A stretch of DNA of 64,000 bases from Albugo candida (lineage: Eukaryota): positions 124,001 to 188,000 of the forward strand of contig JBDOQK010000053.1 of NCBI GenBank assembly GCA_040437565.1, in the 5' to 3' direction. Within the stretch, counting starts at the first letter, position 1. Each line of letters begins with the position of its first letter. The notes under the pieces were generated by a model. It saw nothing but the letters and a program-made list of their open reading frames with translations. It was not told where the DNA came from and did no database searches. A program made the position numbers and the translations under genes. Shown here one piece after another: positions 651 through 44,121 of this stretch.

Positions 651-1131
651 CAATCCGATTAAATCCGAATTATGACTGGATATGAAAACGCCATTTATAT
701 TTTTTCCCACACTTAAAGTCAAGAATCCGTTCGTTCACTATAAATCGATTCTGTTACGAGCGTGGAATAGTAATGATTCAATGAGGTGTTGTGCTCGTTC
801 TGAGTATGATACGCATTATCAGAAGCTGATGAGAGTGGAAGTAAAGCGCATTAGACCCTGCTTCCTAGATCAGTCTTCTTACATTCGTCCAAGTGTATTA
901 GCGCACAAATACTGAGATGCAATGCAAGTTTCACTTGACATCATTGTTATCTTATCAACGTGCAAATAAAAACGCGAGTCCTGAAAGCACACGTTTCCTT
1001 CCTTCGATGAAGAAATGTGCCGTCAATTGGGCTCACACCATCCAAATAATTCATCTATTAATATCCTTCCACTACGAATATTCTGACAAATTTCATCAAA
1101 AAACAAATTTTTATTACGCACATTAATGCAA

Positions 1132-2550
1132 TCAAACGTGATGATGTCCATCATTACTATTGAGTATGTTGGCCACATGTTGCTGATTGGTGTGGTTTAC
1201 GTCACTTCCATGAACCGCCACTCCATCGGTCCCCTTTTGCGACCCAATTGAGGTGTTTGCCAGCGGATAATTGTACATTAGCGAATAATTGGCTGGAGCG
1301 ATGGCCGCAAGTTTGGCTCGGGGAATTACTTCACCGGGTCGTGGTCGGGTACGAGGTCTACCACGAGGACGACCTGTTCCTCGGACTTTCTTCTTGGACC
1401 CTGATTTACCGCTAGCAGCTCCGTTACTCTGCACGGGGACTCCGGAAGCACCAAAGGAAGCCATCAATTCTGCAGAAGATAGTGGTGAAGGCTGGTCATT
1501 TCCACATGTTTGGTCGTTGCTACCAGTGGAGCTATGTCCCTGTAAGCCAAAGGATTGGCCAAAATTTGTCATGAAAGACATTCCAAGTCCTAAAGCTGAT
1601 TTATGACCAATCGTATCGGGCTCATGCTTAACAACGCTGTGAAGTGATAAATCGTGCTTCGATGGGCGTCCGCGTTTACGTCTTGGTGCTTCCTCATGGG
1701 AGCATGACATTGATAGATTTGTACCCAGCGAGGCGAAAGCGTCATTGGTGTTCCCAATAGACGAAAGGCCCAACGCATCCGTGTTAACATTTTCCGCCCT
1801 ATACTGTCCGTTCATCGACTGAGCAGCCAGAGCCATCGCTTGACTTGCGTGAATTGACTGTATGTTACTTCCATCGACTGAACTTTTCTCCGTGTCATGA
1901 TCTAGTGACTTAAATGAATTTGGATCATCATTATGTTCTTCTTGTTCATTGGATGTAATTGCCTGTCCCGACGCATTTGATTGGGTCATCCAAGGCATCA
2001 CTGTCCCCATTGGGAACATCATCATCCCCAAAGCCATTTGCTGAGCCATTGACGCCATATTCGCTAATTCACTCGGACTTAGATTTTGTATTTGCTGTTG
2101 TTGTAATTGCATGAATTGCTGTTGTAATTGCCCAGAGTTCGCGCCACTCAAATCAAGCATTGCATTCCCATTAGAAGTTGAAATGGATGCTGACGCTCCA
2201 TTAAGACTCAGATCATCGGCATCATTCGCAGTACTTAGAGTTGATGATGTGGTACACGTACTTTGAGTGGCGGATATGGAATTTAGGATCGTGGGCGCGA
2301 AAATAAGTGGGAACGAAGTGTTGGCTATAGATGTCGCATGAGCATTTATTGCATTGGAATCAACCATTGAATCCGAGACATGGTGTGCGGTACTTTCCAA
2401 CGATTTTGTAGTTTGGTGATTTGCTTCATGAGATGAAGATTTTTGAAATTCGGACTGATCATTTTCATCACGAGAATTCGACACTTTTGTATGTTTGGAA
2501 TCTGTTGGTTGTGGAGCAAAGTGGCGACGCTTTTCGGAATGATTGGGCAT
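1132..2550 (-). CDS. AT-hook-containing low-complexity nuclear protein
   Basis: 472-aa ORF with RRKRGRPSK and GTGRPRGRPRTRPRP AT-hook motifs and a Q/M-rich tract. Confidence 0.75.
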   Translation of the reverse strand: MPNHSEKRRHFAPQPTDSKHTKVSNSRDENDQSEFQKSSSHEANHQTTKSLESTAHHVSDSMVDSNAINAHATSIANTSFPLIFAPTILNSISATQSTCTTSSTLSTANDADDLSLNGASASISTSNGNAMLDLSGANSGQLQQQFMQLQQQQIQNLSPSELANMASMAQQMALGMMMFPMGTVMPWMTQSNASGQAITSNEQEEHNDDPNSFKSLDHDTEKSSVDGSNIQSIHASQAMALAAQSMNGQYRAENVNTDALGLSSIGNTNDAFASLGTNLSMSCSHEEAPRRKRGRPSKHDLSLHSVVKHEPDTIGHKSALGLGMSFMTNFGQSFGLQGHSSTGSNDQTCGNDQPSPLSSAELMASFGASGVPVQSNGAASGKSGSKKKVRGTGRPRGRPRTRPRPGEVIPRAKLAAIAPANYSLMYNYPLANTSIGSQKGTDGVAVHGSDVNHTNQQHVANILNSNDGHHHV

Positions 2551-2895
2551 TTTTGAGGCGAATTCCCTAGGCTTTCGAGTCGATTTATAGCTAATCGTTG
2601 CGCGTCGAGCTCAGTTTTTCTCCCTCTCAAAGAAGCGGATCAGAATGTAAGGAATCGTACTTTGCAAGCACCGTTTTTCAAAAGTACGAAGCCCACTTTC
2701 TACAAAGTACGGTGGCAAGGACGAAAACGCACAGTCTATATCTACCAATAAACAAACTCCACGCTGACAATAATACGATAAATACTGTTTATCTATCTTG
2801 AAAAGTACGAATCCGGCTCACTACCGTGCTGTTCACAAAACGTACGAAAGCGCAGCACCAGCCAATTATTCCACTCAAACTCTTTATCTGCGGTA

Positions 2896-3317
2896 ATGCC
2901 TCTGTCCAAGGAACAACACGATGAGCTCTGCGTCTCGTACGCTTCATTGATTTTATTTGATGGCGAAGCTGAAATCACATCAGACGCTCTTATGAGTGTA
3001 ATCACCGCTTCAGGAAACGAAGTTGAGCCTTACTGGCCGACATTGTTTGCTGGTTTCTTGTCAAAAGAGGGAAGGATCATGGATTTGATCACTAGCGGAG
3101 GACCTTCAGCGGGAGGAGGTGGTGCAGCTGCCTCAGGCAACACTGCAGCAGGTGAAGAAGATGCTACTGCCGCTAAAGATGAACCAAAGGAAGAAGAAGC
3201 CGATATGGTACTTTATTACTTACGTCTTATTACAGTTCTATCACTCACTATTATCTCTTTGCATAGGATCTTGGAGGTGGAATGGATATGTTTGGTGGGG
3301 ACGATGATGACTACTAG
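2896..3317 (+). CDS. RPLP1: 60S acidic ribosomal protein P1
   Basis: ELCVSYASLIL...VEPYWPTLFAGFL followed by an Ala/Gly hinge. Removing intron 3208-3266 (GT..AG) gives the acidic C-terminus EEEADMDLGGGMDMFGGDDDDY*. Confidence 0.95.
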
Positions 3318-5695
3318 ATGGCTCTTGTACCTTTATAGCATCTTGATTTGCAGGCGTATACCTCTCATCATAATATAAAAAAAAGACTTTGGCTTCACCG
3401 AACACTATTACTATTTGTATCGATCCTTGAAGCTCATTGGACAAGTCGCTCAGTCACAGCCTCGGATTGAAAGTCACGTAGAGCCTATCCAATATCACCA
3501 TTTCTGTCACGTATCATATCCCGCCCTATTGACTTCTGTGCTGTTAAAACACCTGCCACTGTTTATTTTACCAATGTTTGTCAGGTGCAATGTATGGGCT
3601 CGTGAATGTGTCGGCCGTACGAATCACACGCAACCTGTTGTCATTTAATATCTATTCACCGGATCGACGGGATACTTGCTATCTTTCTCGGTCCATGCTT
3701 TCTACTCAATAAATCGTAAGGAAGCGGTGTCCTTATTTTACACAAAGAGTTACACAAATTCAGTCCGCGGACCAATTGGTCCAATATCGCTGAAACCTCA
3801 TGTATCGAACTTCAGCTCTCCGAGGGCTAGTGAAGTTTTAAGAATCGACCTAATCATATGTCATGCGTTACCAAATCTCTTCGACTACGTGAGCGTGCCG
3901 AAATAGTCATTGCACGGTGTCTGATTAGCGGTGCATGTAAGTTGCATTGATTGACGACCCTAAGCTATGTCTACACAATATTTTAGGGCAGGAAGACGCA
4001 CTAAATCGGACATTAGGCATTGACAGGATACTTTTTGTACATTTTAGCTTCTTCTAAAATAGAGATATTCTTAACTTGATTGGTTATTTCTATAACACGG
4101 CAAAATTGAAAAAGTCATACCAGATAACGTAAAGAATCTAATGATCAAGCACCTTCGTGCAACTATGCTATAAATCGGTTGTACTAACACGATGTAATCC
4201 CTTCTTTACAAGAAATCCTTCCCATTTCTCCGTCTTCGTTCACATCAAACGAGGTTCGGCTTCAATACAGCTCATCGTGGTGATGTACCGTTCCGTCTTT
4301 CGGTTGTTTAGAAGATGGAGATCAACGCCACCCCCTCGTTACCAGCCTTTGTTAAGTTACTTGTGGTTCAATGGGGGGTTGGATTCTTACGCGCATTTGT
4401 GCTATATTGAATAAACGAATTGGAGAAACGCATTGCGCTCGACAATTGTCTCCGTTAATTGTGTATCCACACTATTTACACAAACCATCACCCGTTTGAT
4501 GTATTGTACACAACATGGATCCATCGCGTTGATGAACTATTGCGATAGACACGTCTTTCACCATCACATCGGCGGACCATAGGAATCAACACGTCCAAAT
4601 ATCGTCAAAGAACAAAAAATGGCGTCAAATACAACACATCACAGAGTATGCGTGCGGCAAGCTTTTTATCGCATTCGTTGGCAATTATCAATTGGATCAA
4701 ATTAAACTACAATGTATAGAAACCAAAGCGAGAGTCGTGGTGGCAAGCACGGGTTAAGGTGTGGTTTATTAAGATTGGAGAATGGTTCTGGGATGTATCG
4801 ATCATCAAAGGTGCTGCTCTTATGGAGACTACGGATTAAATGCGACACTTTTTGATTTGGACGTACATGCAGTTACGTGAAGCAAAACCGCAACAGCACA
4901 TCACCATCATGTTTACGAACTCTACAATAACTACTATTTTGGCTGTTGTTCCCAGCTGAGTGTTACCCGCCCGGGTTCATGAGGCTTTTGGCAGCACAGC
5001 GTGTAATGGCAATCGCATTCGATGTACACTAATGGTACGGGTATTTTCAAAATGGATCTTTATGCTCTCGATCACATCTCCTAGGCTATAAGGCAGCTTT
5101 TTTACGTCTAGCAATATGAAACGTGTGCTGTTAGCCATTCAACCAGTCCAAGCAGTCAAGTATCCGCTTCGATCAAGACTGCTACCTTGTTGATAGGCAA
5201 GAGGAACCGACTCATCGTGTCTGGTACTGGTCCGATAAGGCTTTCCTGATGAAAAATCTCGAATATGCAAACTTTGATACAGAAATGCAATTAGACGTCA
5301 ACGATTGTAAATCAAGGATCAACACAGGATTTTGTCTTTATCACGAGACATGATCGCGATTTGTTATACAACATTGCAAAGAGAAAAGCGATTTATGGAA
5401 GCAAGAGCGATGAAGCAATCATTCTACGGATCTTTATATGGCCACCTATCTCACCTTTATGACTTCGAAACGCATTCGGATACTCTTCTCGGCATTCGTG
5501 TGAGTTGTGGCTAAGACGTCGTGTCCCTACATAGCTCCGAGAGGTAATTGTTTCTTTGCTTTGTATTTACATACCACTGAGAAATAATCTCAACTTTCAT
5601 TTGTTGCTCCAATTCTTATGAAAAACCCCAACCTATAGTAAATAATACATACGCGTATTCAAAGTCGAGCTTGCAATGTACATTGACCATAGTAC

Positions 5696-6835
5696 TTAGT
5701 CGGTTCTAGAAGGGTCTATGTATGTCTGATCACTTCTGCCATATTTCACATCAGAATCATTATCAAAATCCTCCTTCACATTCTCCTTGATAGATTCTGT
5801 GATGTCGACGGCCCATTCATTTTCGTTCACGCCAAAGGTTAAATTGAAAGCTCTCAGAAATGAGGAACCGAGTACCCATACATCCTTCCTTCCTGAACTC
5901 TCGAATAGAGGGATGCAAGTGTCTTCCTTTTTGAATATTGATTGACGGCCTTTGAATTTTACATCCAATTGCTGTGTCCTGTCGCCACCCCAGTGTATGG
6001 ATAAGTTGATGTATATATCGATCAGTCCAACCCCTCTATTCAACAAGAGTATATCCAAGCAATTGAACTCGTAGCGACCGCTATTCGAATTGAAAGTTAC
6101 TGGAATCTTTTCCAATTGAAATAAATATCCAATCCTTTGAAAAATATCGGGCGGAACTTGAGTGGCTTCGTTACCAAGCTGGAATCCTATCTTTTGATTA
6201 GTATAATGTTTCCCGACAAATTTGACTTTTTCTGGCTTGATAAAATTCCCCTTCTTCAAAGTAACACATGGTGCATTCAGCAATTGCCGTGAAACTCCAA
6301 GGTAGAGCCTTGGACCCTTATGCGTTATCCAGTCAACCGTGTAAATCCCGCGGTGTTGAAACATATAATCATGAGGGTTGACAGCGGGGAACGGGATATG
6401 GTAGAATCCTTTCCCTTTACACAACTTTACTAAGGCATTCCAAGTTATCCTCCAGCCGATGTGGTATTCATACCCCTCAACCGGAAGTGTCAAAACTGCT
6501 ATCGCTTCCTCGCCGTTTATTTTGAACTTCCGATTTCTTCGCTCAAAAGTTTGGAGTTCTTTCCAAGCCGAATCCGAAGGAGGAACTGAATCACTCGCAA
6601 TGACAAAAGTCAGAGTATAAATACGCGTTTCACAATCACCTTCGCATACGGGAGCTCCATCGTTCAAAAATTTTACATCAGGGAGTAGATCAAGCCTCAA
6701 TCCTCTATGGAATTTATCTGACCCAGCCGATACTGCATGGACCATATCCAAGTGAATTGCACGCACAAAAGGGACGTGTGTAAGGAAGACTCCTACCGCC
6801 GCAAGACCGATTGTTTTGAGAAAGCAGCATATCAT
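5696..6835 (-). CDS. Secreted pepsin-fold pseudo-protease (aspartic protease-like, no catalytic Asp motifs), paralog 1
   Basis: Intronless; likely ATG at 6835. Signal-peptide-like N-terminus (LKTIGLAAVGVFLTHVPFVRA|IH). A1-type motifs VPPDIF, GRYEFNC and TCIPLFE..WVLGSSFLRAF are present; no DTG/DSG anywhere. Confidence 0.8.
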   Translation of the reverse strand: MICCFLKTIGLAAVGVFLTHVPFVRAIHLDMVHAVSAGSDKFHRGLRLDLLPDVKFLNDGAPVCEGDCETRIYTLTFVIASDSVPPSDSAWKELQTFERRNRKFKINGEEAIAVLTLPVEGYEYHIGWRITWNALVKLCKGKGFYHIPFPAVNPHDYMFQHRGIYTVDWITHKGPRLYLGVSRQLLNAPCVTLKKGNFIKPEKVKFVGKHYTNQKIGFQLGNEATQVPPDIFQRIGYLFQLEKIPVTFNSNSGRYEFNCLDILLLNRGVGLIDIYINLSIHWGGDRTQQLDVKFKGRQSIFKKEDTCIPLFESSGRKDVWVLGSSFLRAFNLTFGVNENEWAVDITESIKENVKEDFDNDSDVKYGRSDQTYIDPSRTD

Positions 6836-6910
6836 CGTTTTTCTTGGTCGACTATAGAATACTGATAAAACGCCCAACACTAACTAATGGAAAGATAGAA
6901 TTGCATTACA

Positions 6911-6932
6911 GACTTGGCACGGTGTGGGACTC
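6911..6932 (-). promoter_or_regulatory. Conserved 22-bp upstream motif of the pseudo-protease family
   Basis: GAGTCCCACACCGTGCCAAGTC on the gene strand. Near-identical copies occur at 18472-18493, 34787-34808 and 42891-42912. Confidence 0.6.
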
Positions 6933-6974
6933 TTGAACAAGGATACAGTGTGTTCTTCATGTCTACGACAAAAA

Positions 6975-7370
6975 GTTACCTCAACCTGGATAAGTTTATA
7001 CGGTGGCAACTTTCGAAATTTGGAATTTGTATAGTACGCATAGACACGCACCTTTAGGGTCCCACGATTAACAACAAACGACTTGATTACGGAGCCTAAC
7101 CTCGTAAAGCTTATAAGCGGGCAACTTTCGTAAGTTAAAATTTGTATGTTACGCATAGACACGCAGTCTTAAGCTTACAGAATACAAAATAAACGACTTG
7201 ATTACTGGGAAACACCTCGGAACGCTTATGAGCTGGCAACCTTTATATTATATTACGGATAGACACGCAACTGCAGGGTTTTGGACTCACAGCAAATGAC
7301 TACATTTCTGTGCACCACCTTGGAAAGCTTATAGGATGGCAAGTTTTGCACTTAAGAATTCGTATTTTAC
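6975..7370. repeat. ~115-bp degenerate tandem array upstream of paralog 1 (about 3.5-4 units)
   Basis: The core acctcggaaagcttataagctGGCAACtttc recurs, with the GGCAA[C/G] anchor at 7005, 7120, 7235 and 7338. Confidence 0.9.
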
Positions 7371-7559
7371 ACCAACTGCTCAAGTGCACACTTCCAGGAG
7401 CCAAGTATGTCGAATCATATTCTTTTTATACCTATCACGCTGATTGATATATCTGGCAATTATTTGCGACGCTTATTAAGGATAACTGAGTATGAAGACT
7501 GCGAAGTTCGTTTGAACTTAGACTCGGTCGGGACAAACTAAAGCGCTGTACTCTCACGA

Positions 7560-8100
7560 TACAAAGCCGCAAAACGTTCATCCCCCGTGTTGAACTGAAT
7601 AGTTCACTGAAAACCACACTGAGGCTGTTTCTTCAGTTTTTCGGGTGATTTTACCTTTGCTTTTCCATGTAACCGATCAAGTTTCTGTTGTTTTTAAATT
7701 CATATCAAAATCTCGATCGTTCCCCGCATTCTCGCCAGTGACTTTTTCATTCACTGAGCTTACCAGTAAGGCGACATTTGATTCACTGTCAGTAGTTTTG
7801 GATGACCGCATGATTGTACGTTGCTCACGNNNNNNNNNNNNNNNNNNNNNNNNNNNNNNNNNNNNNNNNNNNNNNNNNNNNNNNNNNNNNNNNNNNNNNN
7901 NNNNNNNNNNNNNNNNNNNNNNNNNNNNNCAAGAGCCATAGTTTTATGTACCTTCCTTCCACCTCAATGCGTTCACGTTTCTTACATTCGTGTCACCTTT
8001 TGTATGTGTTGATGTGGTGCACGCGAACGGATTATAATCATGAGTACACATGGATGAGATCGTATATTGACTCGGACAAAGCTGGGTAGTACGATACGTT
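7560..8100 (-). pseudogene. ESF1: ESF1-like pseudogene, copy in cassette A (interrupted by gap)
   Basis: 7645-7829 aligns with 35480-35670 and 7930-8160 aligns with 37140-37373, i.e. both ends of the ESF1 relic in copy C. The diagnostic middle falls in the N-gap. Confidence 0.6.
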
Positions 8101-8261
8101 TACTTGTTATATAACAGCCACTTGAATAAATCTTAAGCAAAATAGGATTCCCGGCGGGCTTTTTTCTATATTTCATTAATATCCATGCACGGCATAACAG
8201 AGCGAACGTAACGAACTTCTGCGTCCTAAACCGCTATCAACTGTACTGTACAATATTATGA

Positions 8262-9312
8262 GGGAATTGCTATTTCCAGCCACCGCGTGACTTTTTGACC
8301 AATTAGATTACGGTGTTATTTCCACCCAAGTTTTTTTACTAGGGAATTGCTATTTCCACCACATCGTGAGTTTCTGACCAATCAAGTTACGGCTTTATTT
8401 CCAATCAACTCTTTAGTATAAGGCTAAAGTTTCACAGTCCTGCATGCCGATCGAAGGTATCAGAACTCATAGTTGCACATCTTTCTAGTATCCACTTCTA
8501 GATCAGCTAACTTCATCATGCTTTTCGTTGTACCGCGTCGTTCCCAAACAGTAAAGTACACATTTACGGATCGCCATCACATGTCGTCGATCTACTACAT
8601 CCTACGAAAAAGTCTTTAGAAGTTGAAAATACGTTCAGTCTGGTCTGAGAATTGGACTGATAACGACAGCGGACTTTTGCCGTATGTCATCAACACGAGA
8701 GAAAATTAAAATAACTTGTAAATACATTTGTAACTTGTTCACGCCGGTTTTGAAGCGCACAAACGCCCTCCGGCTGTACTGTTATGGGATGGGTCATCGT
8801 TTCCAGATGTTGCACGTAGCTGCTTTCAGTGGACTTGTCATCTTTATACCGCTATACCGCTTGTATGCATCGCCCGAATTCCGAAGTGCCCTGTGGTGCA
8901 ATCGAGTGCACGTTTGCGAAAGTTCTAGCAGAATCTTTGGACTGAAAAAAGGTACTCTACATTATCTCTTACGGATGCGACACGGATAGCGGATTTTCAA
9001 TACACCTGGTGTCAGGCCGTTCATGGCAGATTATATGCATCCAGGGTGGGTCTACCAATCAAAACTTCTGAGTNNNNNNNNNNNNNNNNNNNNNNNNNNN
9101 NNNNNNNNNNNNNNNNNNNNNNNNNNNNNNNNNNNNNNNNNNNNNNNNNNNNNNNNNNNNNNNNNNNNNNNNNTGGGTCTACCAATCAAAACTTCTGAGT
9201 GAAGTGCCCCTATCATAAAAAGGTGGGTGGAAATAGTAAAAAACTTGGGTGGAAATAACGCCGTAATCTGATTGGTCAAAAAGTCACGCGGTGGCTGGAA
9301 ATAGCAATTCCC
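8262..9312. mobile_element. Non-autonomous TIR DNA transposon, probably Merlin/IS1016-type
   Basis: ~80-bp inverted repeats starting GGGAATTGCTATTTCCAGCCACCGCGTGAC (8262 onward; reverse complement ends at 9312), flanked by a perfect 8-bp TSD TATTATGA (8254-8261 and 9313-9320). Contains an N-gap; no transposase recognised. Confidence 0.8.
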
Positions 9313-10210: not shown

Positions 10211-11829
10211 CCATTGGTAGTTTTGTCGTTTCTAAGGTATTCGGCTAGAATACTTTTGCTTTCTTCCTTGAGAATTACGTCAAAACTTTATCAATTTCGT
10301 AACGTATCACTAGCGACAATCATAATCTCCAACTCACATGCTTCATCGCTTTCTATCTCGGCTTAGACCAGAATCGTAACATAGAAGGTCTTTATCTACC
10401 ACAAGAAATGCAAGCTCGAGGTTTTTGTATCGTAATTTTACCGAAATGTTGTTATTTACAAGTTGTTTCTCGGGACATTCAAGGGCATTTAGGTATACTG
10501 GACAGAACATTTCGAAAACGATCGCGAGGATGTATCTCTTCTTTATATGGACGGACCTGATAATTCCAGTGACGACAAAGACCTTGAAGATGCACATGAG
10601 GTCAATATTTGCGTATATTCCAAATGACCACACGGGACCGCATCGACGCTTCTATGTCTCTGACTCAGATAGAAAATTCTCGAATGATTTATCTAGCCAC
10701 TACGGTCGTCAGGTTTCGACTTTTTTTTATTTGCCAATTCCACATATTGACGGAGATTGACGGGAGCCATGAGCCTAATTGAAGGTGTTTGTATACCAGA
10801 AAATACTACTAACTACCTTCTCCATATGCCTTAACTATCTTAGCCTAGTCTACAAGCCTAGTCAGAAAAGGATGATGATATGATACCCAGCATTTATATC
10901 GTACACAATCGATCAGCAATCAAAGCATCCGAAATGAAACTCGTGCGGATTGAACCGGGTGAAATTCGGAGGATCGTGCATAACACGCTACAGATTTTTT
11001 GTTTTTGGGTACGTTTGAGTACGCGTTCTTGTTGACAATGACGCCGAGTTGCTCGTCCGTAATAATGAAACTTTGAATTGATTGAGTCGTCATTGCAAGT
11101 ATCAAACATAATAACAGTAGTTATCGGACAATTTCTGTAAAGATTCCTGGTGCGTCGAATCTCCTCTGCCCATAGTATATTACCAGCGGGTCGGAATGGA
11201 ACCTACAACAAAGAAAGCATCTGTCGACTATTCAGAGAAAAGGGCGAAAGTATCTTCATGAAGCGATGAGGGTCTTGAGATCGGGCTGTTATAAATCGCT
11301 TACCGAGTCGGTTGTCGTAAAGATAGATTCACGCTAAATCCTATACTAAAACCAGCGTGTTTGGTTGGCCTCGTGTAAATGTTATTAGTGTCAGTCTTTG
11401 CGTGGGTCAGGAGTCTATTGACGATGATATAGACGTGCCGCATTTTTGATTCCGTTCCCGCTTCATTCTGGTGTTGCTTTAAGCGCTCTTGTGGTGGATA
11501 ATGGCGGTTGAATGGAAACCGATCGGATATGTAACGTAGTCTAATCCGGAGACCACCACAACAAGACAAGGCATCGGAAAAAGAGGTGACAGAAAAAGAA
11601 CCGGTGCCGCATCGCGACCCAAAACTAAAAAAGAAGAAGACAAGCCAAGGACGGACGTGGCCTCGAGATGAGCATCGTACCCATTCGAAGGCAAGAAAGG
11701 AAGATGCGGAACGGAAGCATCAGTACAACATGGAACATAGTGCGAGGAAGGAGTTTGACGTAGTACAGCGTGCGTAAAGAAGATCCCAAAAGCTACGGAC
11801 ATGATATGCGTAGCAGTCGGAGCATATCG

Positions 11830-13250
11830 AACGTTACAAAGCGAGACTCGTGGCCTGGGGGAACGAGTAACGTTTCGGGGTCGACTATGGACTTACATTT
11901 GCCGCCGTTATGGAGCTCAGTACCGTACAAGTGGTACTGGTTCTTGCAAGGAAATGGGGTGTGCCGGCGAGGCACGGGGACATCCCGAATGCCTTTGTAA
12001 AGGCAGATAAGGAAGAGCATTTGGAGATTTACCTGCGTATACCGCAAGGTAAGGAAATCCGCACAGAAGATATCCGGAAATTGGGTGCGGATACGCGGAG
12101 CCAAGTTGCATTGCGTTTCAAGAAGTCACTATACGGACTTAAGCAGGCAGGAAGATTATGGAGCCAGCTACTTCATGGCAAACTGGAAGATGCAGGGTTG
12201 GGTTTGCACGCTTTACTACGGACATGTGTTTGTACTGCAATTGATCGGGTTGCGAGATGATCGTCGTAGGGGTTTACGTCGATGATCTCCTGTCCACGGC
12301 ATCGCTACAGACGCTAGTGGAAGACTTTTTTGCTACAATGGATACACTCTAAACAAAGGACCTCGGTGAAGTAATGAAATTTTTGGGAATGCGCGTTGAG
12401 CTAAGCGAAAAGGATGACTACACATGCTTGATTAGTAAGCGACTATTGAAGAACTCCTGGAGCAGCATGGATTGGCTAAAGCGAACGGGTACACATTCCA
12501 GCAGGAAAGGATAGAAATGAAGCTGAAGCGGGTGAGATGAAGTATCTGGTGACGGAAGGATTCACCAGGTGAGCCGCGTATCCGCTATTTTCAGTCTCTT
12601 GTTGCAAGTTTGTAATGGATTTCGCGCTGTACGCGTCTGGACATAACCTCCACCCTTCATAAGGCGACGCGAGGAGCTCACTAGCGGACTCTACAAGACT
12701 GGAAATTAGCGAAGAAGGTTGCTCACTATCTGAAGGGTACATAGGAGTTGAAGCTGTTCATGCAAATGAGTGCGTCGGACGCAGATGAGCTCTCGCTTGA
12801 GATTTGGAGTGACGCGGATTTTGCGAACGACATGCAAGATCGGAAGTCGGGTGGAGTGATTACGATGAATGTTGCGTTCATACAATGGATCTGCAAGAAG
12901 CATACTGGTGTATCCCTTTCCACCATGAAGGCTGGAATTACTTCAGCGTCTCACCTTGGACGGGAGCTTTTGGAGTTATGTGAGCTCGTGCGAGAGATTG
13001 GATTTATGGTCCGCGAGCCGATGACCATGAAGATGGACAACCAGGCAGCCTTTAAGCAGCTGGAGTCCGAAGACAGTATGACGAGCGCAAAACACGTGGA
13101 TGTTCGAGTGAAGTTTATTCCAATTTCGGCAAAAGGGGAACTGTCGCTCCGTTGTACGTCGAATCACGAATGACGATGGCGGACCTCCTAACCAAAGCAC
13201 TCTCGGCACCGAGACTGATGGAATTGCGAGAGTTTTTTTGGCTTCGCTAA
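11830..13250 (+). mobile_element. Degenerate Ty1/Copia retrotransposon (RT and RNase H)
   Basis: RYKARLVA, GDIPNAFV, KKSLYGLKQAGRLW, VYVDD, WSDADFA and MDNQAA..AKHVDVR, with stops and frameshifts. A purine tract GAGGAGGAG is followed by a TGTAAG LTR start at 13287. Confidence 0.92.
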
Positions 13251-16200
13251 CTGGAAGATCACAGTCACGAGGCGGTCGAGGAGGAGTGTAAGAATTTAAG
13301 GTTTAATTGCAAGAGCGAGAAACTGGTTTCGACCGCTTTTTTGAGATGAGTGTGCGGCATACCGGTAACTCAGTTAGACAAGAAGGATAGGTTATCAGAA
13401 TGTCAAATATCTTTTAATAGACGACTTTTCTTCACGAATTCATTCCTGTCTGATCAAAAAAAAGCGAGGTCTATGTAGTCAAAGTGTGCTTCTGCAATGG
13501 ATAATAGAACGCAAAATTCTACTTTGATATTTATTCGACGCACGCAGCGACAGCCACGAGCTCGGAGGCTTCCTATTTTTCATTGATGTAGCCCAACGTC
13601 TCTGACTGGGATCGAAGGGTGGGGCGATGTGGCCGAGTTATCTAAAGACGGTCGAGATGTATTGTAAAACGTTTCTATCAAAAGTGGAAAAGCAAGAAAA
13701 GAAAGCGTACTATAGGTATATCCGTATCTAAAGTCGATGTTCGTAACTATTATAGCATCTTGCACACCTTGCAAATGAAAGAAGGGTGGGAACGGTTCTG
13801 TATATGTTTGATGCCTAAAAAAGGAACGGTGCTTCTACAAAGAAGTTGGCTCCAGCACATTGTGGCTTCTTTAGTATCACTTGAGCCAGCCAACTCCTTT
13901 TTTCTACATACTCAAAGAATACTTCCTACCGACTTACCCGCATACTTATACAACAGGATTAGTGCTATTTTTTGCGTGATATGTACACCTTATCACACCA
14001 CAATGTAAGCCTATCCAAGGTTTTAGAGCTTGATCAAAGCGGAGATGAGACAATAATGTGCATGTAGTTGTTCTTAGTAGCTGCTCCTTCTAGTCGTTAA
14101 ATAGTCGATATCAAGCGCCTCAAATCTGCACACTTGGAGGAGGGAAACACGTAACGTATATTACCAATCAAGCTGTGAGCACGCTCGTGGCAGCAGAACA
14201 AACGCAACAAGCATGTGTGTCTAAGGATTCCACCCCATTCAGGGGGTCATATTTGTATGGTCGTGTGAAAGCTCATTTCTCATACCGTGAAGATAGGATT
14301 ACAACTAGGAAATTAGCGACATGCTAGGGCTGCCGTCTAGACGAGAATTTATGCTCATTGTCAGTGCTTGCGATTCAATTCCGAAAGGTTCATATGCTTG
14401 CGGACAAGCTCGTACGACCTCAGATTTTGCTGCAATCCGACTATCATGTATTGGCTGATACAATCCTGACGAGAACTTTCCCGCTAGTCGTAGATCACTA
14501 GTCCCTTTCTTTACGAATGCTGCAAAGACTCCAATTAAGCACATTTGATTTGAGGTTACGAGTCATGAAATCGATACATGAAGGTTGCTGACGCTCGTAC
14601 ACGATTATGAAGTAGTACTGTAGTTGAATGGTCAATTTCTATCTATCGTGAGTACGTTCATTGAACATCCTCATCTTTTTTGCAACTCACACACGAAGTC
14701 TCACTCGCATGTACGCACCAATATGCTGAACGAGCAGTACATATTGTGATGGTGCCATGCTCCTCCGTCTGTACAGTCTATTGGCGAAATATCAATAGGT
14801 CATCAAACCCCAAGCATCGATTGGATCACCAATAAGTCTCCAATGGATTGATTCAGCAGTTGTTTCGTGGCAGGATAATTCTCTTTTGCTCTTGCAGTAC
14901 TAGATACGATAGAAGACGCTATGGCTAAACAGATTAGCTACATGTACCGTGCTAAGAGTCAATTATGGTTTCTGGTAAGCGGTGCATACAAGTTGCATTG
15001 ATTTACGACCCTCAGCCATGTCAATAAAATACTTTACTGCAAATTATGAAAAGAAATTGGAGTTTGTGTGACATTACACAATTTTACAGGATACTTTTGT
15101 GTTCCAGCTATTATGAAACAGGTATTTCTTGATAGGATTTGGCACATTCTTTTCGAGTTTCTAGCACGATAAATTTAAAAGTCACATACAGAAAGTGATT
15201 AATAAGCACCTTCATGCGACATTTCTCCAATTCGATCGAGCTAGAGTTGAAAAATGTGATCCCATTTTTATAAGATATCGTCTCCATGTCGCCATCTTCT
15301 TCCAGATCAGTGGAGTTACCACAATCATCTGCGCTTGTAACGTTTAGATGTGTTTCGACAAATGAAATGGCCAGCACATAATGTCCTCAATATCGAGTCC
15401 AAAGATAAAGATCGTTTAGACTCCAGTACGCCATCTCAATTACTTTCCATCGGCTTTTTACAGGGCTTCTAGCCTCAGAAGTGGGGTAATTTTGCGTCAA
15501 TAAAAGTAACCGCGATGATATACTCTCCCAATCTTATTGGCTGTGTAAAAGATGGATATAAAGCCATCCGCTAATTGCAGAATTCTTTGACATATTTTAG
15601 AATATACGTGTCGTGGAAATGAACTTGGAATTCGTCGCACATTTGCGCTGGACAGATATACGAAAAGAATTAAGCTTGACCATTATCTTTGATCTTTTAT
15701 GTGTACACACTCACACTATTTACACTGGTATCAGTTCGATGTACTTTGTCAAGGATTTCATTACACTGTTTATCTGGTTCTTTAACTACCTTCCTTATCC
15801 TATCATGAGCCCCTGACCGTGTGAATATCACTTAAGTCTGTACTGTACACAGCTTTGCTCCATCACGTCGATAATTTATCACCAGAGGCCCCTGCGTCAG
15901 ATCACATTGTGTGAATAATAGAAATCGACACGGCCCAATACTGTCAATGACAAAAGATGGCGTCTTTTACAACAAATCACGGGTTATGCGTGCGCTCACC
16001 AAGTATCGATATCAATTCATCGTTGGCAGTGTATTCATTGGATAAGAAGCATCTGGAAACTATGCGGAAATCTTCGTTGCAATCATGGGTCAACTTGTGG
16101 CTGGCTGTGATTAAAATTTTTTATAAATCTATTTACCATTTGAGGCGTCTAAGACACTACTCGTGTGGAGAATATGGATCTGATTCGACAGTACAAATTT

Positions 16201-17336: not shown

Positions 17337-18395
17337 CTATGTACCAGTCTTTATATTTTCCCCATTCTCGTCGGTTGTTTTGATGATTCTGACGGACCAA
17401 TTTTTCTCTGTCACCACTTCAAACATCAGGTAGGCAACCCTCAGAAATGAGATACCGAGTATCCACACATTCTCTATGTTTGAGTTCTCGAATAGAAGAG
17501 TACACGTGTCCCCATTCTCGATGACTGAATGTGCCGGATTCATTATAATAATGAACGGCAATTTGACATACCAAAGTAATTTAAAAGTGAGCTCGATGTC
17601 CGCTGAAAATTCATATTCATTTCGTGTATGCATGATTTCGCAAGGTACCTTGTAGCGACCATTCTTCAAAGTCCATGGAATTTTGCGTGCAGACAAGAGG
17701 ACTCCTATTCTGCTGAATGTCTCGGGCGGAACTTGGGTGGCTTCGTTAGCAAGGTGAATATTTAAACTTTGAGACTCATAATTTGAGTGGAGGAATGTGA
17801 TATGAAATGGATTGGTGAATTCTTCTCTCAACATCGTCTCTTGAGTTGATGCTGGCTCCTGCGGTACTCTTCCAAACTCAAGTATCGGATCCGATTGCGT
17901 TAACCATTCAACCGTGAAAAGCCCGTAACTCTGGAAAATATAAGCATTCGGATCGATAGCGGTGAACGGGGTATCGTAGAATCCTTTCGTTTTGTACAAC
18001 TGTTTCAAGGAATTGCAACTCATCTTCCAGCCGATGCGGTGTGTGTATAACATTTGCCTATATAGCAAAACACTTCTTGCCTTCACACCGTTTAATTGAT
18101 AGAACGGAAGTTGTTGCTCCTCAGCATCGAGTTCTTCCCAAACCGAATTAGGAACTGATTCCTTCGGACTGATAAAAGTCAGCGTATAAACATCCCCCTT
18201 TTTGCATACGAGAGCTGCATCGCTGGAGAATTTTACATCAGGGGATATATTAAGCTTGAATCCTCTATGAAATTTCTTTGAACCAGCCGATGATGTATGG
18301 ACCATATTCACGTGAATCGCACTCACAAAAGGGTCCCGTGGATGAAAGACTCCCACCACGGCAAGACCAAACGTTTTAAGAGAGCGGCTTTTCAT
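17337..18395 (-). CDS. Secreted pepsin-fold pseudo-protease, paralog 2
   Basis: 352 aa, intronless. N-terminus MKSRSLKTFGLAVVGVFHPRDPFVSA|IH; motifs EATQVPPETF, NGRYKVPC and GDTCTLLFE..WILGISFLRVA; no DTG/DSG. Confidence 0.8.
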   Translation of the reverse strand: MKSRSLKTFGLAVVGVFHPRDPFVSAIHVNMVHTSSAGSKKFHRGFKLNISPDVKFSSDAALVCKKGDVYTLTFISPKESVPNSVWEELDAEEQQLPFYQLNGVKARSVLLYRQMLYTHRIGWKMSCNSLKQLYKTKGFYDTPFTAIDPNAYIFQSYGLFTVEWLTQSDPILEFGRVPQEPASTQETMLREEFTNPFHITFLHSNYESQSLNIHLANEATQVPPETFSRIGVLLSARKIPWTLKNGRYKVPCEIMHTRNEYEFSADIELTFKLLWYVKLPFIIIMNPAHSVIENGDTCTLLFENSNIENVWILGISFLRVAYLMFEVVTEKNWSVRIIKTTDENGENIKTGT

Positions 18396-18539
18396 TATTT
18401 CTCTTTGTCAATTATCAAAAACTGATGAAATAACAGCACTTTAAACTCGTGGAAATAAAGAATTGCCTTACGACTTGGCACGATGTGGGACTCTAAAATT
18501 GCGACATTGGTTTGTATCAATTCTACGATCAGATAAGGT

Positions 18540-18830
18540 AGCTCACCTCGAAACGTTTATACGATGACAACTTTTTCAAATTAGAAACGCTTCTGCAGGG
18601 TTAGAGAATTGATCACAAGCGAGTTGACTAAGATGATTACCTCGATAACGTTATAGACTGACAACATTTGTAACCCAAGCTTGGTAATTTAAGACCGGAC
18701 CGTGCCTTTCAGGGTCCAGAATGCACAACGAACGACTGCATTTCTGTGCACCACCTCGGAAAACTTATAGTTGCAACTTTAGAATGCTAAATTTGTATCA
18801 TACAAAGAGACGTAACTTTAGGGTTTAGGC
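18540..18830. repeat. ~95-115-bp tandem array upstream of paralog 2 (3 units, truncated by an LTR-like insertion)
   Basis: Same unit as 6975-7370, with anchors at 18566, 18660 and 18772. It ends abruptly at TGAAGGTGTC (18831). Confidence 0.8.
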
Positions 18831-33629: not shown

Positions 33630-34703
33630 TCAAGCGTCATTAGCTACTTGAACTTGATTCCCTTTCACGACGTTAAAGCTTACATCAAAAGCCTTCAGAA
33701 ATACATTACCGAGCATCCATCGATTCTCCTGCATTCCTTTCTCGAAGAGAAGAGTACACTTACCGCCAACATTGACAAAAAAATGAAGCGGTGAGACTGC
33801 ATATTTCTTCTGGTCGACCGTAAAGGAAAAAAAATTCTCGTCCGATATGTTTCTCGTCGAACAATCTCCCTTGTACCGACCATTGTCTAATTTCAATTTT
33901 TCTTCAAATTGCGCTCCGATATTTTGGAAAATGCTGGGCGGAATTTTGATGACATCGAAACGGACTGTTTGACTTACAGTATGGTATGTATTAGTCATCC
34001 CAAAAAGCTCGACATCAACATCGTGGTAGTCATACATCACGTCAGATGTAGATTCGACAGTGCTAGATGATTTCCTTCCAAACATGAGCACAGGATCATC
34101 TACTTTGGGCCATGCATACGTGAAAGCTCCAGAATATGGCTTCAAGTATACCATAGAGTCGATAGAGGGGGTCGGGAGATGGTAAAATGCTTCTTGTTCG
34201 GCCAGCTTTTTCAACGCTTTCCAAGTCAATGTCCAGCCGATGTAATATTTTTTTGATTCAATCTCAAAAGTCAAATGTTTCTGTGTGTCCACACCAATCA
34301 ACTGGTGAACTTTATAATCATCGATCGAATCCTCCGGTTGTACTTGACCTTTATTACGTGGAAAAAAATTGCTATTGGCTCTTGGAGCTGAAAGGGATTC
34401 TTTCCAATTTTTAATCGGGACGGTGGCTCCCTCGATGGCTAGGGTCACCTCAAAGAGCTGTTTTTCGCAGCCCTTAAACCATACAGGAAGCCCTTTAGGG
34501 TCGAATTCCACATGAGGATCTAATTTGACTTCCAATCCTCTCCAATCCCCATCGAAATCTGCCTTTTTTGCTTCAATCAGTTTCACGTAATTCGTAATTG
34601 GATCATCGCTGGTTGTAGAAATGACTGCTACTACCGCTGGGTCGTATGCAAGGAAGACTCCTACCGCCGCAAAAGCAACCGTTTTCAGCAAGCGGTCCTT
34701 CAT
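33630..34703 (-). CDS. Secreted pepsin-fold pseudo-protease, paralog 3
   Basis: Likely ATG at 34703 (MKDRLLKTVAFAAVGVFLAYDPAVVA). Motifs YYIGWTLTWKAL, KIPPSIF, NGRYKGDC and KCTLLFE..WMLGNVFLKAF; no DTG/DSG. Confidence 0.8.
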   Translation of the reverse strand: MKDRLLKTVAFAAVGVFLAYDPAVVAVISTTSDDPITNYVKLIEAKKADFDGDWRGLEVKLDPHVEFDPKGLPVWFKGCEKQLFEVTLAIEGATVPIKNWKESLSAPRANSNFFPRNKGQVQPEDSIDDYKVHQLIGVDTQKHLTFEIESKKYYIGWTLTWKALKKLAEQEAFYHLPTPSIDSMVYLKPYSGAFTYAWPKVDDPVLMFGRKSSSTVESTSDVMYDYHDVDVELFGMTNTYHTVSQTVRFDVIKIPPSIFQNIGAQFEEKLKLDNGRYKGDCSTRNISDENFFSFTVDQKKYAVSPLHFFVNVGGKCTLLFEKGMQENRWMLGNVFLKAFDVSFNVVKGNQVQVANDA

Positions 34704-34849
34704 TGTTGCTCTTGCTCGATTTTGAAATACTGATAATATTACCAAGACTTCAAACGAGTGAAAACGTAGACCTGCACTGCATTACACACTTCGCACGATG
34801 TGGGACTTTTGAACAAGGATACGGGGAAGTTTTTATGTCTACGACAAAA

Positions 34850-35230
34850 AGTTAGCTCAACCTGGATAAGTTTATAGGGTGGCAACTTTTGAAATTTAGA
34901 AATTGAATATTACGCATAGACACGCACCTTCATGGGCCCACGATTAACAACAAAGGACTTGAATCCTGTGAAACACCTCGGAAAGCGTATAAGCTGGCAA
35001 CTTTCTTAATTTTAGAATTTGGATATTACGGATACACACGCAGCTTTGTCTCACAGAATAAAACAAACGACTTAAAATCCTGTCAATCACCTCGAAAAGC
35101 TTATAAGCTGGTAACTTACGGGTGGAAACGCACCTTCCGAATTCTTGGTTCACACCAAAACGACTTAATTATTGTGCACCACCTTAGAAAGCTTACTGGC
35201 TGGGCAATTTAAGAATTTGTTTTTCACACC
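34850..35230. repeat. ~115-bp tandem array upstream of paralog 3 (4 units)
   Basis: Anchors at 34881, 34996, 35110 and 35203. Confidence 0.9.
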
Positions 35231-35399
35231 AACTGCTCACATGAGCACTTCCAAGAGCCAAAAATATCAAAGTCTATTCTCTGCACACTCATTACGCTGG
35301 TTGATATATTCGGAAATTATTTGCGACACTTATTGAGACAATGAATGAGTTTGAAGACTGCCAAATTCGTTTGCACTTGAACTCGGTCAATGCCGATGT

Positions 35400-40626: not shown

Positions 40627-42349
40627 TCTCTGGACATCTTTTCCTCCAAATGAGACTCGTGTAACCGCTCTTCCTTCATTCTGAGCAATACGTCTGAGAC
40701 CGCAATACTAACGGGGGTAGTAAGGCTCCCTTCTACTCTCAAGGCGATTGACTGACAGAAGTCAGGCTGTGTGACAGTCAAAATGGCTTTTCACAGTTGA
40801 GAGGGCTTCTGATCCAAATATTCGTGAACACCACATCCTGCTGTAGGCAAATATCACAGCATCTCATCCACCCACGTCTATCCCATAGACCTGCAAATGC
40901 CTATCAGCCTCTCCTCCCCCACATATACTGACACTGGTAACATCCAAACGAGGCCAACCAAGCACGTTTGCAGTAGTATAGAATTCCCCGTGATTCCATC
41001 TTAACAACAACCGAATCGGTACGGTATGGTGAATTCTCGAGCTCAAGACCCTAATTTGTCTATAGTCGACAAATGGTTTACGTGCTGACACTTTCAATCT
41101 GACCCGTTCGTGATTTTGTATCGGTGGTAGAGATTTGAGGCATGTGGAAGCTTTACAATGATTTATCAGACATCTAAGTAACATTTTTGGCGATTGCAAA
41201 GAGCGAATTATTATTTCCGGAATTTCTATGAGCACCGATGCACAACTGGCGACGCTGTCACAAAATACGCTTACTCGATATACAGTGAAAAATGAATTTG
41301 TAGCGTGTCATGCTCGTGCCTCAGAATTACACCCGTTATCATTCGTACGATTTTTGTATTCGGATGATGGATGAACGACTTGTGTGCGATAGAATTGCTG
41401 GTAGCATACAAACTCCAATGGGCGAGATATCTGATTAGTGCAAGGAATTCGTTTCTCATCAAAGATGTTGGGATAAGTTCGATACTCTATTTTGAGATAG
41501 CCTAGACATACAGAGAAAGCAATTGATGAAAATCTCCAACTAGGTTCTCTTCAATGTACGGCAATCACTGAGTCCTGGCGATAGAACTGAGTAGATAATT
41601 CATTTGAAAGTCTTCTATCCGGTTCCGAGAGATAGGAAGCGTTGATGTGTTATCCATGTGGTCATTCTTAATGTATAGAAACGTAAATTAGGTGCGATAT
41701 GATCAGCGTAACATGGGCTATCATGCAAGAGACAACACCAACACAATTTGAAGCCATTTCATTTTGCAATCTCAATTATCTATGTCTCTGCAATGAAAGG
41801 TGCCGTCATGTTGGAGGATCAGTGATTGTCTCGAAACTCTGCCTTCTGACTTCTACAGACCTCTGTAAGGTGTTGTCATGATGTTAGTGCTGTAGTTTAC
41901 CTCCATCTTGGCAAAATAGTCACAGATCGCAGCCGATCATACTGATTTGCCTGTAAAAATAAAAAAACTGCTCAATTTAGATATGCGACCCAAGCAGTGT
42001 GCAGATATGATCACTATGGCTGGAACTGATCTTCTGAGCAAGTACCAAGGCAAAGGTAGCAGTAAGAGCTTGAACAAGCGACCCAATACAAAGATCACAT
42101 TCACGTCTGCCATTGACCGCATAATCCAAGCACGCACCACGATAGGTTGAGTCTCTTGATGCCACAATTTTTATATCATCTCAACTATTTAAAGCACCGG
42201 CTAAGAATCATCCTCGAGATCGTTTAAGGATACTTCGCAGTCAGTTATCGTACCAAGAGCGTCACAAATAATTCCCACCTATCCCCATGGCTGTGCAGAG
42301 AATAAATGTACATTCTTGGCTCTTAGAGGTGCCCACGTGAGTCGTTGTG

Positions 42350-42845
42350 AAATACAAATTTTCAAATGACAAAGTTGCCAACCTAAAGGTGGTATAGAAT
42401 CATGTAGTCGGTTGTCCCTGTATCCTGTTACCCTGATGATGCGTTCCATGCGTGAAGTACATCTAGATCAGAAAGGTCGCTACTCTATACAGTTATCAAG
42501 TATTCGCTCCTTTTTTGTGTATTATCTAACCCTTTAGGGGCGTGTAGTGCTATTCGTGTAATAGAAGTACAAATACAAATTTCAAAAGTTGTCAGCCGAT
42601 TTCGAAAGTGGTTAAAAAGTAAAGCACTCGTTTGTTGCGAATCCTAACACTCGGAAGGTACGCTTCGTTCGTGAAATACAAATCTTAGGTTACAAAAGTT
42701 GTTAGTCTTTGAAATTATCAAGATTAATCAAAGTAATCAACTCGCTTGTTTATATTCTGTAAGCTTGTAGATGTCTGTCTATCTATAGAATACAAATTCT
42801 GCAGTCCAAAAAGTTGCCAGCCTATGTACTTAACGAGGTTGAGCT
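42350..42845. repeat. ~100-115-bp tandem array upstream of paralog 4 (about 5 units, inverted)
   Basis: Reverse-complement anchors (aaaGTTGYY-like) at 42374, 42476, 42588, 42698 and 42813, most preceded by aatacaaat. Confidence 0.8.
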
Positions 42846-42960
42846 ACCTTGTTTCTCGCACGCATGGAAATAACGTGGATCCCAATCCATGAGTCCTACT
42901 TCGTGCGAAGTGAGTTTGAAGTGCTGTCAATGTCTTGAGCATTACTAATTCAGAGGAACA

Positions 42961-44121
42961 ATGAAAGGCCGCTTTCTCAGAACGTTAGGTCTTGCCGTGG
43001 GAGTCTTCCTTGCCCATGAACCTAGTGTGATTGCGATTCACGTGAGATTGATTCAAGCAAAATCGGCTCGGTCAACAGAATTTAAGAGAAGTATGCTACT
43101 TAAAATAGAACCTCATGTCGAATTCAACAAGAATGGAGCTCCTATAAAGTTCGATAATTGTGAAAAGACCATCTTCGACTTGACCCTGGTCATTGAGAAT
43201 GGGCCAATTCCGAAGACGGAATTGGTATGGACGAAAACACTCCGAGTAATGCTACCATTTCTTTTGCATAAATTCCATATAGAAGATTCATTCACGAAAT
43301 CAAACCAAGTGGAAACAACTGAAATTCTAAGTTATAAGCAAAATTCTGAAACATATTACATCGGCTGGAGACTGAATTGGAAATCCTTGAACATATTGGC
43401 CAAAGGAATAGGCTTCAACCATTACCCAGCCCCCTCTCTTGCCCTTGATGGATACGTTTCACAGCATTTCGGGCAATATACGTATGAATGGGTAAAAGGA
43501 AAGGGTCCTATCCTCAAGTTTGGAGAATCACAGGAGTTCCAACGTATTCACATGCGTTTCCCGAAGACGGTCATGCTATGTACACAAGTCCACTTTTTTC
43601 ATTCGCATCAAAACTGCCAGCGCGTGGACTTTCAGCTTCATCACGAAGCCACCAAAATTCCGCCAGAATATTTCAACCAAATCGGAAAGACATTTCGTAA
43701 TTTATTGCATCTGATGAATGGACGCTACCAGGGAAGCTGTCAAACGTTAATTCCCCACATCTCAAAAATCGATAGTCAACTCAACACTTACCTCAAATTG
43801 AAGTTAACGTGGTACAGGTACGGGAAAACGATGGCTTTAGAATTTGACTCGGCTCAATCAATAATGCAATCTGGGGACATTTGTACTCTACTACTCGAGA
43901 ATTCGAAGATGGAAGGAGAATGGAAACTCGGTTCTTCATTTCTGGGAGCTGTTGACATATTCCTCTACTTGACCCGTGATTCATCAAAAGATTACTTTAA
44001 GATGATACAAACAAACAGCGAGTGTATTTGGAATCTTGACCAGCTTTCGACGAATGGCAAAAGTGATCAGAATTACATAGACCCATCTGATACCAGCTAC
44101 AAATATACATTGCAAGCTTGA
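42961..44121 (+). CDS. Secreted pepsin-fold pseudo-protease, paralog 4
   Basis: 386 aa. N-terminus MKGRFLRTLGLAVGVFLAHEPSVIA|IH; motifs YYIGWRLNWKSL, EATKIPPEYF, NGRYQGSC and GDICTLLLE..WKLGSSFLGA; no DTG/DSG. Confidence 0.8.
   Translation: MKGRFLRTLGLAVGVFLAHEPSVIAIHVRLIQAKSARSTEFKRSMLLKIEPHVEFNKNGAPIKFDNCEKTIFDLTLVIENGPIPKTELVWTKTLRVMLPFLLHKFHIEDSFTKSNQVETTEILSYKQNSETYYIGWRLNWKSLNILAKGIGFNHYPAPSLALDGYVSQHFGQYTYEWVKGKGPILKFGESQEFQRIHMRFPKTVMLCTQVHFFHSHQNCQRVDFQLHHEATKIPPEYFNQIGKTFRNLLHLMNGRYQGSCQTLIPHISKIDSQLNTYLKLKLTWYRYGKTMALEFDSAQSIMQSGDICTLLLENSKMEGEWKLGSSFLGAVDIFLYLTRDSSKDYFKMIQTNSECIWNLDQLSTNGKSDQNYIDPSDTSYKYTLQA

Follow-up and report, generated by a model that had tools for sequence, protein, structure and literature searches.

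The genomic region and the pepsin-like gene family

The sequence analyzed here, referred to as the window, is a 64-kb stretch of the genome of Albugo candida, which causes white blister rust in Brassicaceae. It is part of a draft scaffold, has approximately 42% G+C, and contains 12 gaps of 100 N. Housekeeping genes occupy positions 1-3400 and 47000-64000 of the window and encode a 60S acidic ribosomal protein, ubiquitin C-terminal hydrolase, Tim17, a Band 7 protein, ribosomal protein S4/S9, Vps41, and a COPI-associated protein. The cluster region at 3800-45600 is repeat-rich; besides a four-gene family it contains retroelement remains, namely a Copia RVT_2 fragment (11871-12257) and Gypsy RT, integrase, and chromo domains (26110-28717). 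A degenerate Gypsy-type element with RVT_1, integrase zinc-binding, and chromo domains spans 23997-28894, and its LTR-like ends (23997-24164 and 28728-28894) match at 81%. Duplicated sequence flanks a number of the 100-N gaps. Thus, within 20307-22710 the segments 20307-21458 and 21559-22710 are 100% identical over 1152 bp, and further gap-flanking duplicates are found at 39662-40627, 50426-50825, 60428-60819, 9047-9200, and 49026-49179. These duplicates look like scaffolding artefacts in which overlapping contigs were left unmerged.

The four members of the family, here called genes A to D, are intact ORFs whose products share 28-41% amino acid identity. Gene A (5696..6835, minus strand) encodes a protein of 379 aa with a hydrophobic N-terminus and a pepsin-like C-terminal lobe. 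Genes B (17337..18395, minus strand) and C (33630..34703, minus strand) encode proteins of 352 and 357 aa, respectively; the latter matches the Pfam Asp model (E 1.3e-9), and its AlphaFold model has a pepsin-like fold. The 386-aa product of gene D (42961..44121, plus strand) belongs to a cluster of at least 90% identity with a named Albugo candida protein, which in UniRef is called Peptidase A1 domain-containing. A more distant cluster mate of the window proteins comes from A. laibachii. In all four paralogs the protein has a hydrophobic start that, judged by eye, resembles a signal peptide. A tblastn search of the four proteins against the window detected no further family copy or fragment at E < 0.1; since only the four loci were recovered at this threshold, the window contains no broken family members.

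The relationship of the family to A1 aspartic peptidases is only partial. The Pfam Asp model matches the C-terminal lobe only, with 16.1 bits for A, 21.4 for B, and 38.4 for C at a cut-off of 19.9, and does not match D; two of the four paralogs (B and C) are therefore above the curated cut-off, and A is below it. A profile search against 1.84 billion representatives yielded 65 relatives at E <= 0.001, and 7 of the 26 relatives that were aligned match Pfam Asp. An AlphaFold model based on the 26-sequence alignment reached pLDDT 74.5 and pTM 0.76, whereas a model from 5 sequences (pLDDT 39.5) was discarded. Foldseek matched 255 PDB chains at E <= 0.001 with probability 1.00 and E down to 2e-9, and among the matches listed all are plasmepsins, proteinase A, cathepsin D, chymosin, or penicillopepsin. 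The predicted structure matches the bilobal pepsin-like fold of A1 peptidases, though with low TM-scores of 0.31-0.41. The D[TS]G catalytic motif, of which an active A1 aspartic peptidase has two, is absent from all four paralogs; among the 26 aligned relatives, one motif was found in three and two motifs in none. Thus, the family shares with A1 aspartic peptidases the fold, the Pfam Asp match in the C-terminal lobe, and the UniRef name, but differs from them in the missing motif and in structural similarity of this limited degree. Because a pepsin-like fold is combined with the absence of the D[TS]G motif, these proteins are probably non-catalytic, and the family probably consists of secreted pseudo-proteases. 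Expansion of aspartic proteases in A. laibachii is described in the consulted part of Kemen et al. (2011; PMC3130010).

The coding sequences have diverged strongly, with dN of 0.49-0.75 and dN/dS of approximately 0.7-0.8 (Nei-Gojobori), and this fast protein change explains their low nucleotide identity. Residues ~54-57 of the gene A protein form an RxLR-like string, RGLR, about 30 residues past the hydrophobic N-terminus. The aligned place is occupied by RGFK in B, RGLE in C, and RSML in D; hence, the RxLR-like string is no feature of the family.

Tandem arrays upstream of the family genes

Each of the four genes is preceded by an array of degenerate tandem units. Array A (6984..7409, plus strand) consists of three full units of 115, 115, and 103 bp and a partial fourth unit, and array C (34860..35265, plus strand) of three units and a partial fourth one. 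Array B (18544..18830, plus strand) contains three shortened, degenerate units. Array D (42294..42839, minus strand) contains five degenerate units and is mirrored because gene D lies on the plus strand. Scaffold gaps are located 460 bp beyond array A and 190 bp beyond array B.

Tandem Repeats Finder (TRF), the check proposed in the first-pass annotation of this sequence, detected only half of the arrays. It reported array A at 6983-7240 (period 115, 2.2 copies, 75% matches, score 274) and array C at 34860-35117 (period 114, 2.3 copies, 78% matches, score 305), but missed arrays B and D even with a minimum score of 30. As arrays B and D are invisible to TRF, a profile search was needed. An nhmmer profile made from five units and searched over the 64-kb window identified 16 units, all inside the four arrays of three to five units each: four hits in array A (6984-7370, E 7e-34 to 5e-9), three in array B (18544-18826, E 2e-9 to 8e-7), four in array C (34860-35220, E 3e-33 to 0.22), and five in array D (42307-42839, minus strand, E 9e-15 to 5e-5). 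Elsewhere in the window this profile produced just two hits, with E 0.8 and 9.8. A profile of all 16 units, which is circular with respect to these units, recovered these 16 places, each at E <= 5e-10, and gave four outside hits at E 1.2-9.7. A 22-mer of the originally proposed consensus had 7 matches at up to three mismatches versus 0.00 expected, and a 16-mer had 5 matches versus 0.43 expected, a number reached in none of 100 shuffles; such exact or near-exact word searches found arrays A and C only.

The geometry of the arrays is constant. The distance between the ATG and the array is 149 bp for genes A and B, 157 bp for gene C, and 122 bp for gene D, and the units are antisense to the gene in all four cases. 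With 16 tiled units arranged head to tail at a period of 114-115 bp, the arrays have the structure of a minisatellite, whose units range from tens to about a hundred bp. The central observation of the first-pass annotation, a tandem array directly upstream of every intact family member and always in the same orientation relative to the gene, is thereby confirmed (16 units, 4/4 genes, 122-157 bp from the ATG), and the coordinates, spacings, and unit numbers given there are correct by nhmmer within a few bases. Its statement that the housekeeping genes lack the array also holds: the nhmmer profiles found no array upstream of these genes at 1-3400 and 47000-64000.

Alternative identities of the arrays were considered. 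A structured RNA gene was rejected: Rfam gave no matches at the gathering score over the window and none at E <= 1 over 6800-7500, a tRNA scan found no tRNAs, and none of the eight unit strands folds more stably than its shuffled versions (z -0.52 to +1.33). A coding function was rejected as well, since the stop-free stretches lie on different strands (6887-7168 on the minus strand in A, 34907-35209 on the plus strand in C) and have no Pfam match. Features of a transposable element or MITE, that is, terminal inverted repeats and dispersed copies, were not found within the window: inverted repeats of at least 14 bp are absent in and around the arrays, over the 64 kb the nhmmer profiles detected units in the four promoters only, and self-comparison of the window revealed no likeness between the arrays and the nearby retroelement remains.

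Conserved core and proximal box

The best conserved part of the unit is a 10-bp core, TGGCAACTTT, which reads AAAGTTGCCA on the gene strand. Its mean column conservation is 0.89, compared to 0.667 over all 111 alignment columns, and was matched by one of 5000 column shuffles; this is not a clean probability, because the 16 units share descent and the best word serves to anchor the alignment. With at most one mismatch, 12 of the 16 units contain the core, at an offset of 18-23, so that a short motif recurs from unit to unit. In array A the cores start at 7004, 7119, 7234, and 7337 (7004..7346, plus strand, 0-1 mismatch), in array B at 18565, 18659, and 18771 (18565..18780, plus strand, 1-2 mismatches), and in array C at 34880, 34995, and 35109 (34880..35118, plus strand, with 0, 0, and 2 mismatches, respectively). 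Array D has cores at 42810, 42695, 42585, and 42371 (42371..42819, minus strand) with 0, 2, 1, and 0 mismatches. The resulting core-to-core spacings are 115, 115, and 103 bp in A, 94 and 112 bp in B, 115 and 114 bp in C, and 115, 110, and 214 bp in D. A spacing of 115 bp corresponds to 10.95 helical turns, whereas spacings of 112, 110, and 214 bp are out of phase.

Within the window the core is largely restricted to the arrays. All six occurrences of GGCAACTTT are inside them, and the 10-mer at up to one mismatch has 11 sites in the arrays and two outside, at 25875 and 59999, one in a retroelement remnant and the other within an ORF. No core was detected upstream of the remaining genes of the window, and sharing of the motif beyond the family was thus not observed there. 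The core presumably resembles an RFX half-site and a Myb core, the match being imperfect. Two palindromes of the unit consensus, AGCTTATAAGCT and AACTTTCGAAAGTT, were rejected as dimer sites, as they occur at up to one mismatch in just 3 and 2 of the 16 units, respectively.

The second conserved element is a 21-bp proximal box, GAGTCCCACAYCGTGCSAAGT, located between the array and the gene. It is found at 6912..6932 upstream of gene A (minus strand, -97 to -77), 18473..18493 upstream of gene B (minus strand, -98 to -78), 34788..34808 upstream of gene C (minus strand, -105 to -85), and 42891..42911 upstream of gene D (plus strand, -70 to -50). At up to two mismatches the box has four matches in the window, one per promoter, with 0.00 expected. 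In the four-way upstream alignment the two best noncoding 20-column windows cover the proximal box and the core of unit 1, where 16 and 15 columns, respectively, are invariant. Column shuffles reached at least 16/20 in 108 of 5000 cases and at least 15/20 in 557 of 5000, and both footprints are thus only suggestive.

Cassette duplication and the age of the arrays

Self-comparison of the window demonstrates that each gene sits in a duplicated cassette of approximately 4 kb, which is made up of about 1 kb of array-bearing upstream sequence, the coding sequence, and a noncoding 3' flank of more than 1.3 kb. Between A and C, the upstream parts (6771-7829 and 34639-35669) match at 76% over 1075 bp and the 3' flanks (4856-5680 and 32736-33548) at 74%, and further matches exist among all four 3' flanks. 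The conserved 3' flank of copy A occupies 4081..5695 (minus strand), as delineated by self-comparison, sliding windows, and tblastx, and its counterparts are at ~15839-17336, 32431-33629, and 44122-45560. It is noncoding, since all six frames give tblastx hits and the copies have no ORF in common. Sliding windows demonstrate the same pattern in all six gene pairs: the flanks are approximately 60-85% identical per 100 nt, in contrast to 30-60% for the coding interior.

Other observations concern the cassette borders. Short repeats are found there beside gaps, 18831-18887 matching 37530-37474 at 96%, and 7933-8163 matching 37139-37373 at 81%. The A and C blocks seem to run on past the gap, C having an additional 1.4 kb or so (35670-37138). 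An ORF of 245 aa (38806-39543, plus strand), situated between cassettes C and D, is weakly CAP/PR-1-like (Pfam CAP E 0.002, under the cut-off), and a 49-bp match to this ORF lies at 11436-11484.

Comparison of individual units on one common alignment allows us to order the two duplication processes. Units of the same rank are 85, 76, 73, and 81% identical between arrays A and C (A1-C1, A2-C2, A3-C3, and A4-C4, respectively), whereas units within one array are 63-73% identical in A and 54-74% in C. Similarly, the pairs B1-D1 and B2-D2 are each 69% identical, above the 53-58% observed inside B. The unit tree groups A1 with C1 (support 94), A4 with C4 and D5 (99), and B2 with D2 (90). As same-rank units of different paralogs are closer than units inside one array, the array predates the gene copies. 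By these comparisons, the array, including its partial distal unit, is older than the paralog split and has not been homogenised since. Hence, its presence at every family member is explained by descent with the cassette rather than by four independent associations. Array D exceeds the other arrays by about one unit, a difference that fits gain or loss of a unit, and units A3, B1, and C3 have internal deletions of 12-24 bp.

Near-neutral decay of the arrays and exchange between paralogs

In every paralog pair the identity of the array equals that of the other noncoding segments. As a neutral benchmark we used 4-fold sites in codons for identical residues, which are small samples of 38-60 sites. 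Identity at 4-fold sites and in the array, respectively, is 0.78 and 0.69 for the pair AB, 0.69 and 0.71 for AD, 0.55 and 0.71 for BC, 0.64 and 0.73 for BD, and 0.63 and 0.69 for CD; none of these five differences is significant (Fisher p 0.08-0.74). Only for AC does the array (0.81) exceed the 4-fold sites (0.55; Fisher p 5e-4), and as this excess is common to all flanks, it points to exchange between paralogs and not to constraint. Thus, taken over its entire length, the array drifts at a roughly neutral rate. The Nei-Gojobori dS of 0.61-1.10 gave the impression that the flanks are far better kept than synonymous sites, but the 4-fold counts undo this for five of the six pairs. The first-pass annotation had named decay of the core at the rate of neutral flanks as an observation against its proposal. 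The whole array does decay like the flanks and, in five of six pairs, like 4-fold sites; the 10-bp core, however, stands out.

Evidence of exchange comes from the conflict of phylogenetic trees. For the cassette spans 3800-7829, 14900-19018, 31600-35700, and 41900-45700, both the upstream and the downstream trees have the topology (A,C)|(B,D), whereas the coding-sequence tree is (A,B)|(C,D), with support of 100/99 in each case. Counts of informative sites for AC|BD, AB|CD, and AD|BC are 35, 5, and 0 upstream (-446 to -1), 12, 44, and 5 in the 5' coding half (+36 to +550), and 34, 4, and 9 downstream (+1289 to +2000). The conflict between flanks and coding sequence indicates ectopic recombination or gene conversion between cassettes. 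The topology switches between -106 and +36, near the ATG and outside the array. The suggestion that the array promotes recombination is thus only partly supported: exchange between paralogs has occurred according to both trees and sites, but the switch was mapped to the surroundings of the ATG, outside the array.

Possible origin and role of the arrays

The arrays have a common descent, keep a fixed position and orientation relative to the gene, and preferentially retain the 10-bp core. The explanation we favor, with confidence that is about even, is an inherited promoter minisatellite carrying repeated putative binding sites for one factor. In this scenario, a segment of about 115 bp that preceded the ancestral gene of the family would have been tandemly multiplied, and the whole ~4-kb cassette would then have been copied at least three times inside a 40-kb region. 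Each core would be a putative site of one sequence-specific factor, and the array would form a homotypic cluster of such sites upstream of the proximal box at -50 to -105, whereas most of the unit would be spacer drifting at about the neutral rate. Such an array would give the paralogs a common expression programme. The earlier proposal of a multimerised cis-regulatory module agrees with the position, the orientation, and the fixed-offset core, but the link to the family is one of descent and the array as a whole decays at a roughly neutral rate; the module is therefore possible but unproven.

The main competing explanation, which we consider plausible though somewhat unlikely, is that a chance minisatellite has been copied along with the cassettes and has no role, the core being simply its least decayed word. 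Cassette duplication alone accounts for the co-occurrence with the family, and the agreement of array identity with 4-fold sites in five of six pairs and with the other noncoding flanks is what a roleless sequence would display. The free loss of segments from units A3, B1, and C3, the four-way footprint p values of only 0.02 and 0.11, and the rarity of the consensus palindromes (3/16 and 2/16 units) point in the same direction. What argues for the promoter minisatellite with binding sites is that the conserved columns gather in a single word at a fixed offset, a concentration equalled in one of 5000 shuffles, and that the core of unit 1 is the second best kept noncoding window over the four promoters. 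Origin of the array from a piece of a mobile element, or from a dispersed Albugo satellite caught in the duplicated cassette, seems improbable. Indeed, the cluster region contains the Copia RVT_2 fragment and the Gypsy domains, and other short repeats lie at the cassette borders, such as the pair matching at 96%; however, all units found in 64 kb belong to the four promoters, the arrays contain no inverted repeats of at least 14 bp and are unlike the retroelement remains, and they keep a constant position and orientation with respect to the gene.

Tandem repeats act as small-RNA or heterochromatin nucleation sites in other eukaryotes, and in a repeat-rich cluster the arrays might similarly be a small-RNA source or a site of heterochromatin nucleation that silences family members, as the first-pass annotation also proposed. 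This reading finds no support in the results above (Rfam, folding, inverted repeats), and the identity of 53-74% between units of one array is poor for siRNA amplification in cis; we consider it very unlikely. An equally small chance is given to the possibility that the main function of the array and the other conserved flanks is to supply homology by which coding sequences are exchanged ectopically among cassettes. The conflict between flank and coding trees and the agreeing informative sites speak for exchange as such, but the switch lies outside the array, any conserved flank would be equally suited, and one inferred event is no demonstration of function. A broader and rather speculative view, which we hold to be improbable, combines these elements: the cassette may be a diversification device, in which conserved noncoding arms (the array plus proximal box at one end, the 3' flank of over 1.3 kb at the other) would keep a shared expression programme and supply homology, fast-evolving coding sequences of secreted pseudo-proteases would be swapped from one expression site to another, and the array copy number of three to five would set the output of each site.

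Comparison with known promoter repeats

The closest documented case is the promoter of the effector gene PWL2 of Magnaporthe oryzae. According to the consulted part of the published account, three 48-bp repeats, each with a 12-bp motif, drive its expression; the motif is needed for biotrophy-specific expression, and the copy number varies among strains (PMC8035637). Insofar as this part of the account allows comparison, both systems have imperfect tandem repeats with a short motif per unit in the promoter, or for Albugo the putative promoter, of a secreted-protein gene of a biotrophic plant pathogen, and in both the copy number differs, between gene copies in the Albugo arrays and between strains in PWL2. 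The differences are that the Albugo units are longer (115 bp, in 3-5 copies, versus 48 bp in three copies) and belong to an oomycete rather than a fungus, and that the Albugo array is common to four old paralogs via cassette duplication. Further, the function of the PWL2 repeats was established, as reported there, by deletion and mutagenesis, whereas that of the Albugo array is putative. In yeast, promoter tandem repeats have been linked to expression divergence (Vinces et al., 2009, as cited in PMC8035637); compared with what this citation conveys, the Albugo units are long and old, and their copy number is nearly stable (3-5). The position of the proximal box, -50 to -105, resembles that of the Inr/FPR core promoter element of Phytophthora, whose median distance upstream of the start codon is 81 nt in the consulted part of PMC3520976, a comparison by position alone. 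In contrast to Inr/FPR, the Albugo box is family-specific within the window, all four of its matches being in family promoters.

Among the titles and abstracts retrieved from the Albugo and oomycete literature on promoter tandem repeats, minisatellites, paralogs, and proteases, none describes such an array. The available text of the preprint on the Ac2V assembly (10.1101/2021.03.29.437041) contains nothing on promoters or tandem repeats, and the passages of Albugo or Phytophthora papers retrieved by term searches contain nothing about promoters or tandem repeats of this kind.

The four-gene cluster demonstrates that a repeat upstream of every member of a family can result from cassette duplication alone. 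The conflict between the flank and coding trees documents exchange between paralogs in a secreted-protein cluster of a biotroph. To our knowledge, very few cis-regulatory elements are known in oomycetes, and Albugo is unculturable apart from its host. In this setting, the core and the proximal box, found in four paralogous promoters, are testable candidate control elements for a secreted family of a crop pathogen.
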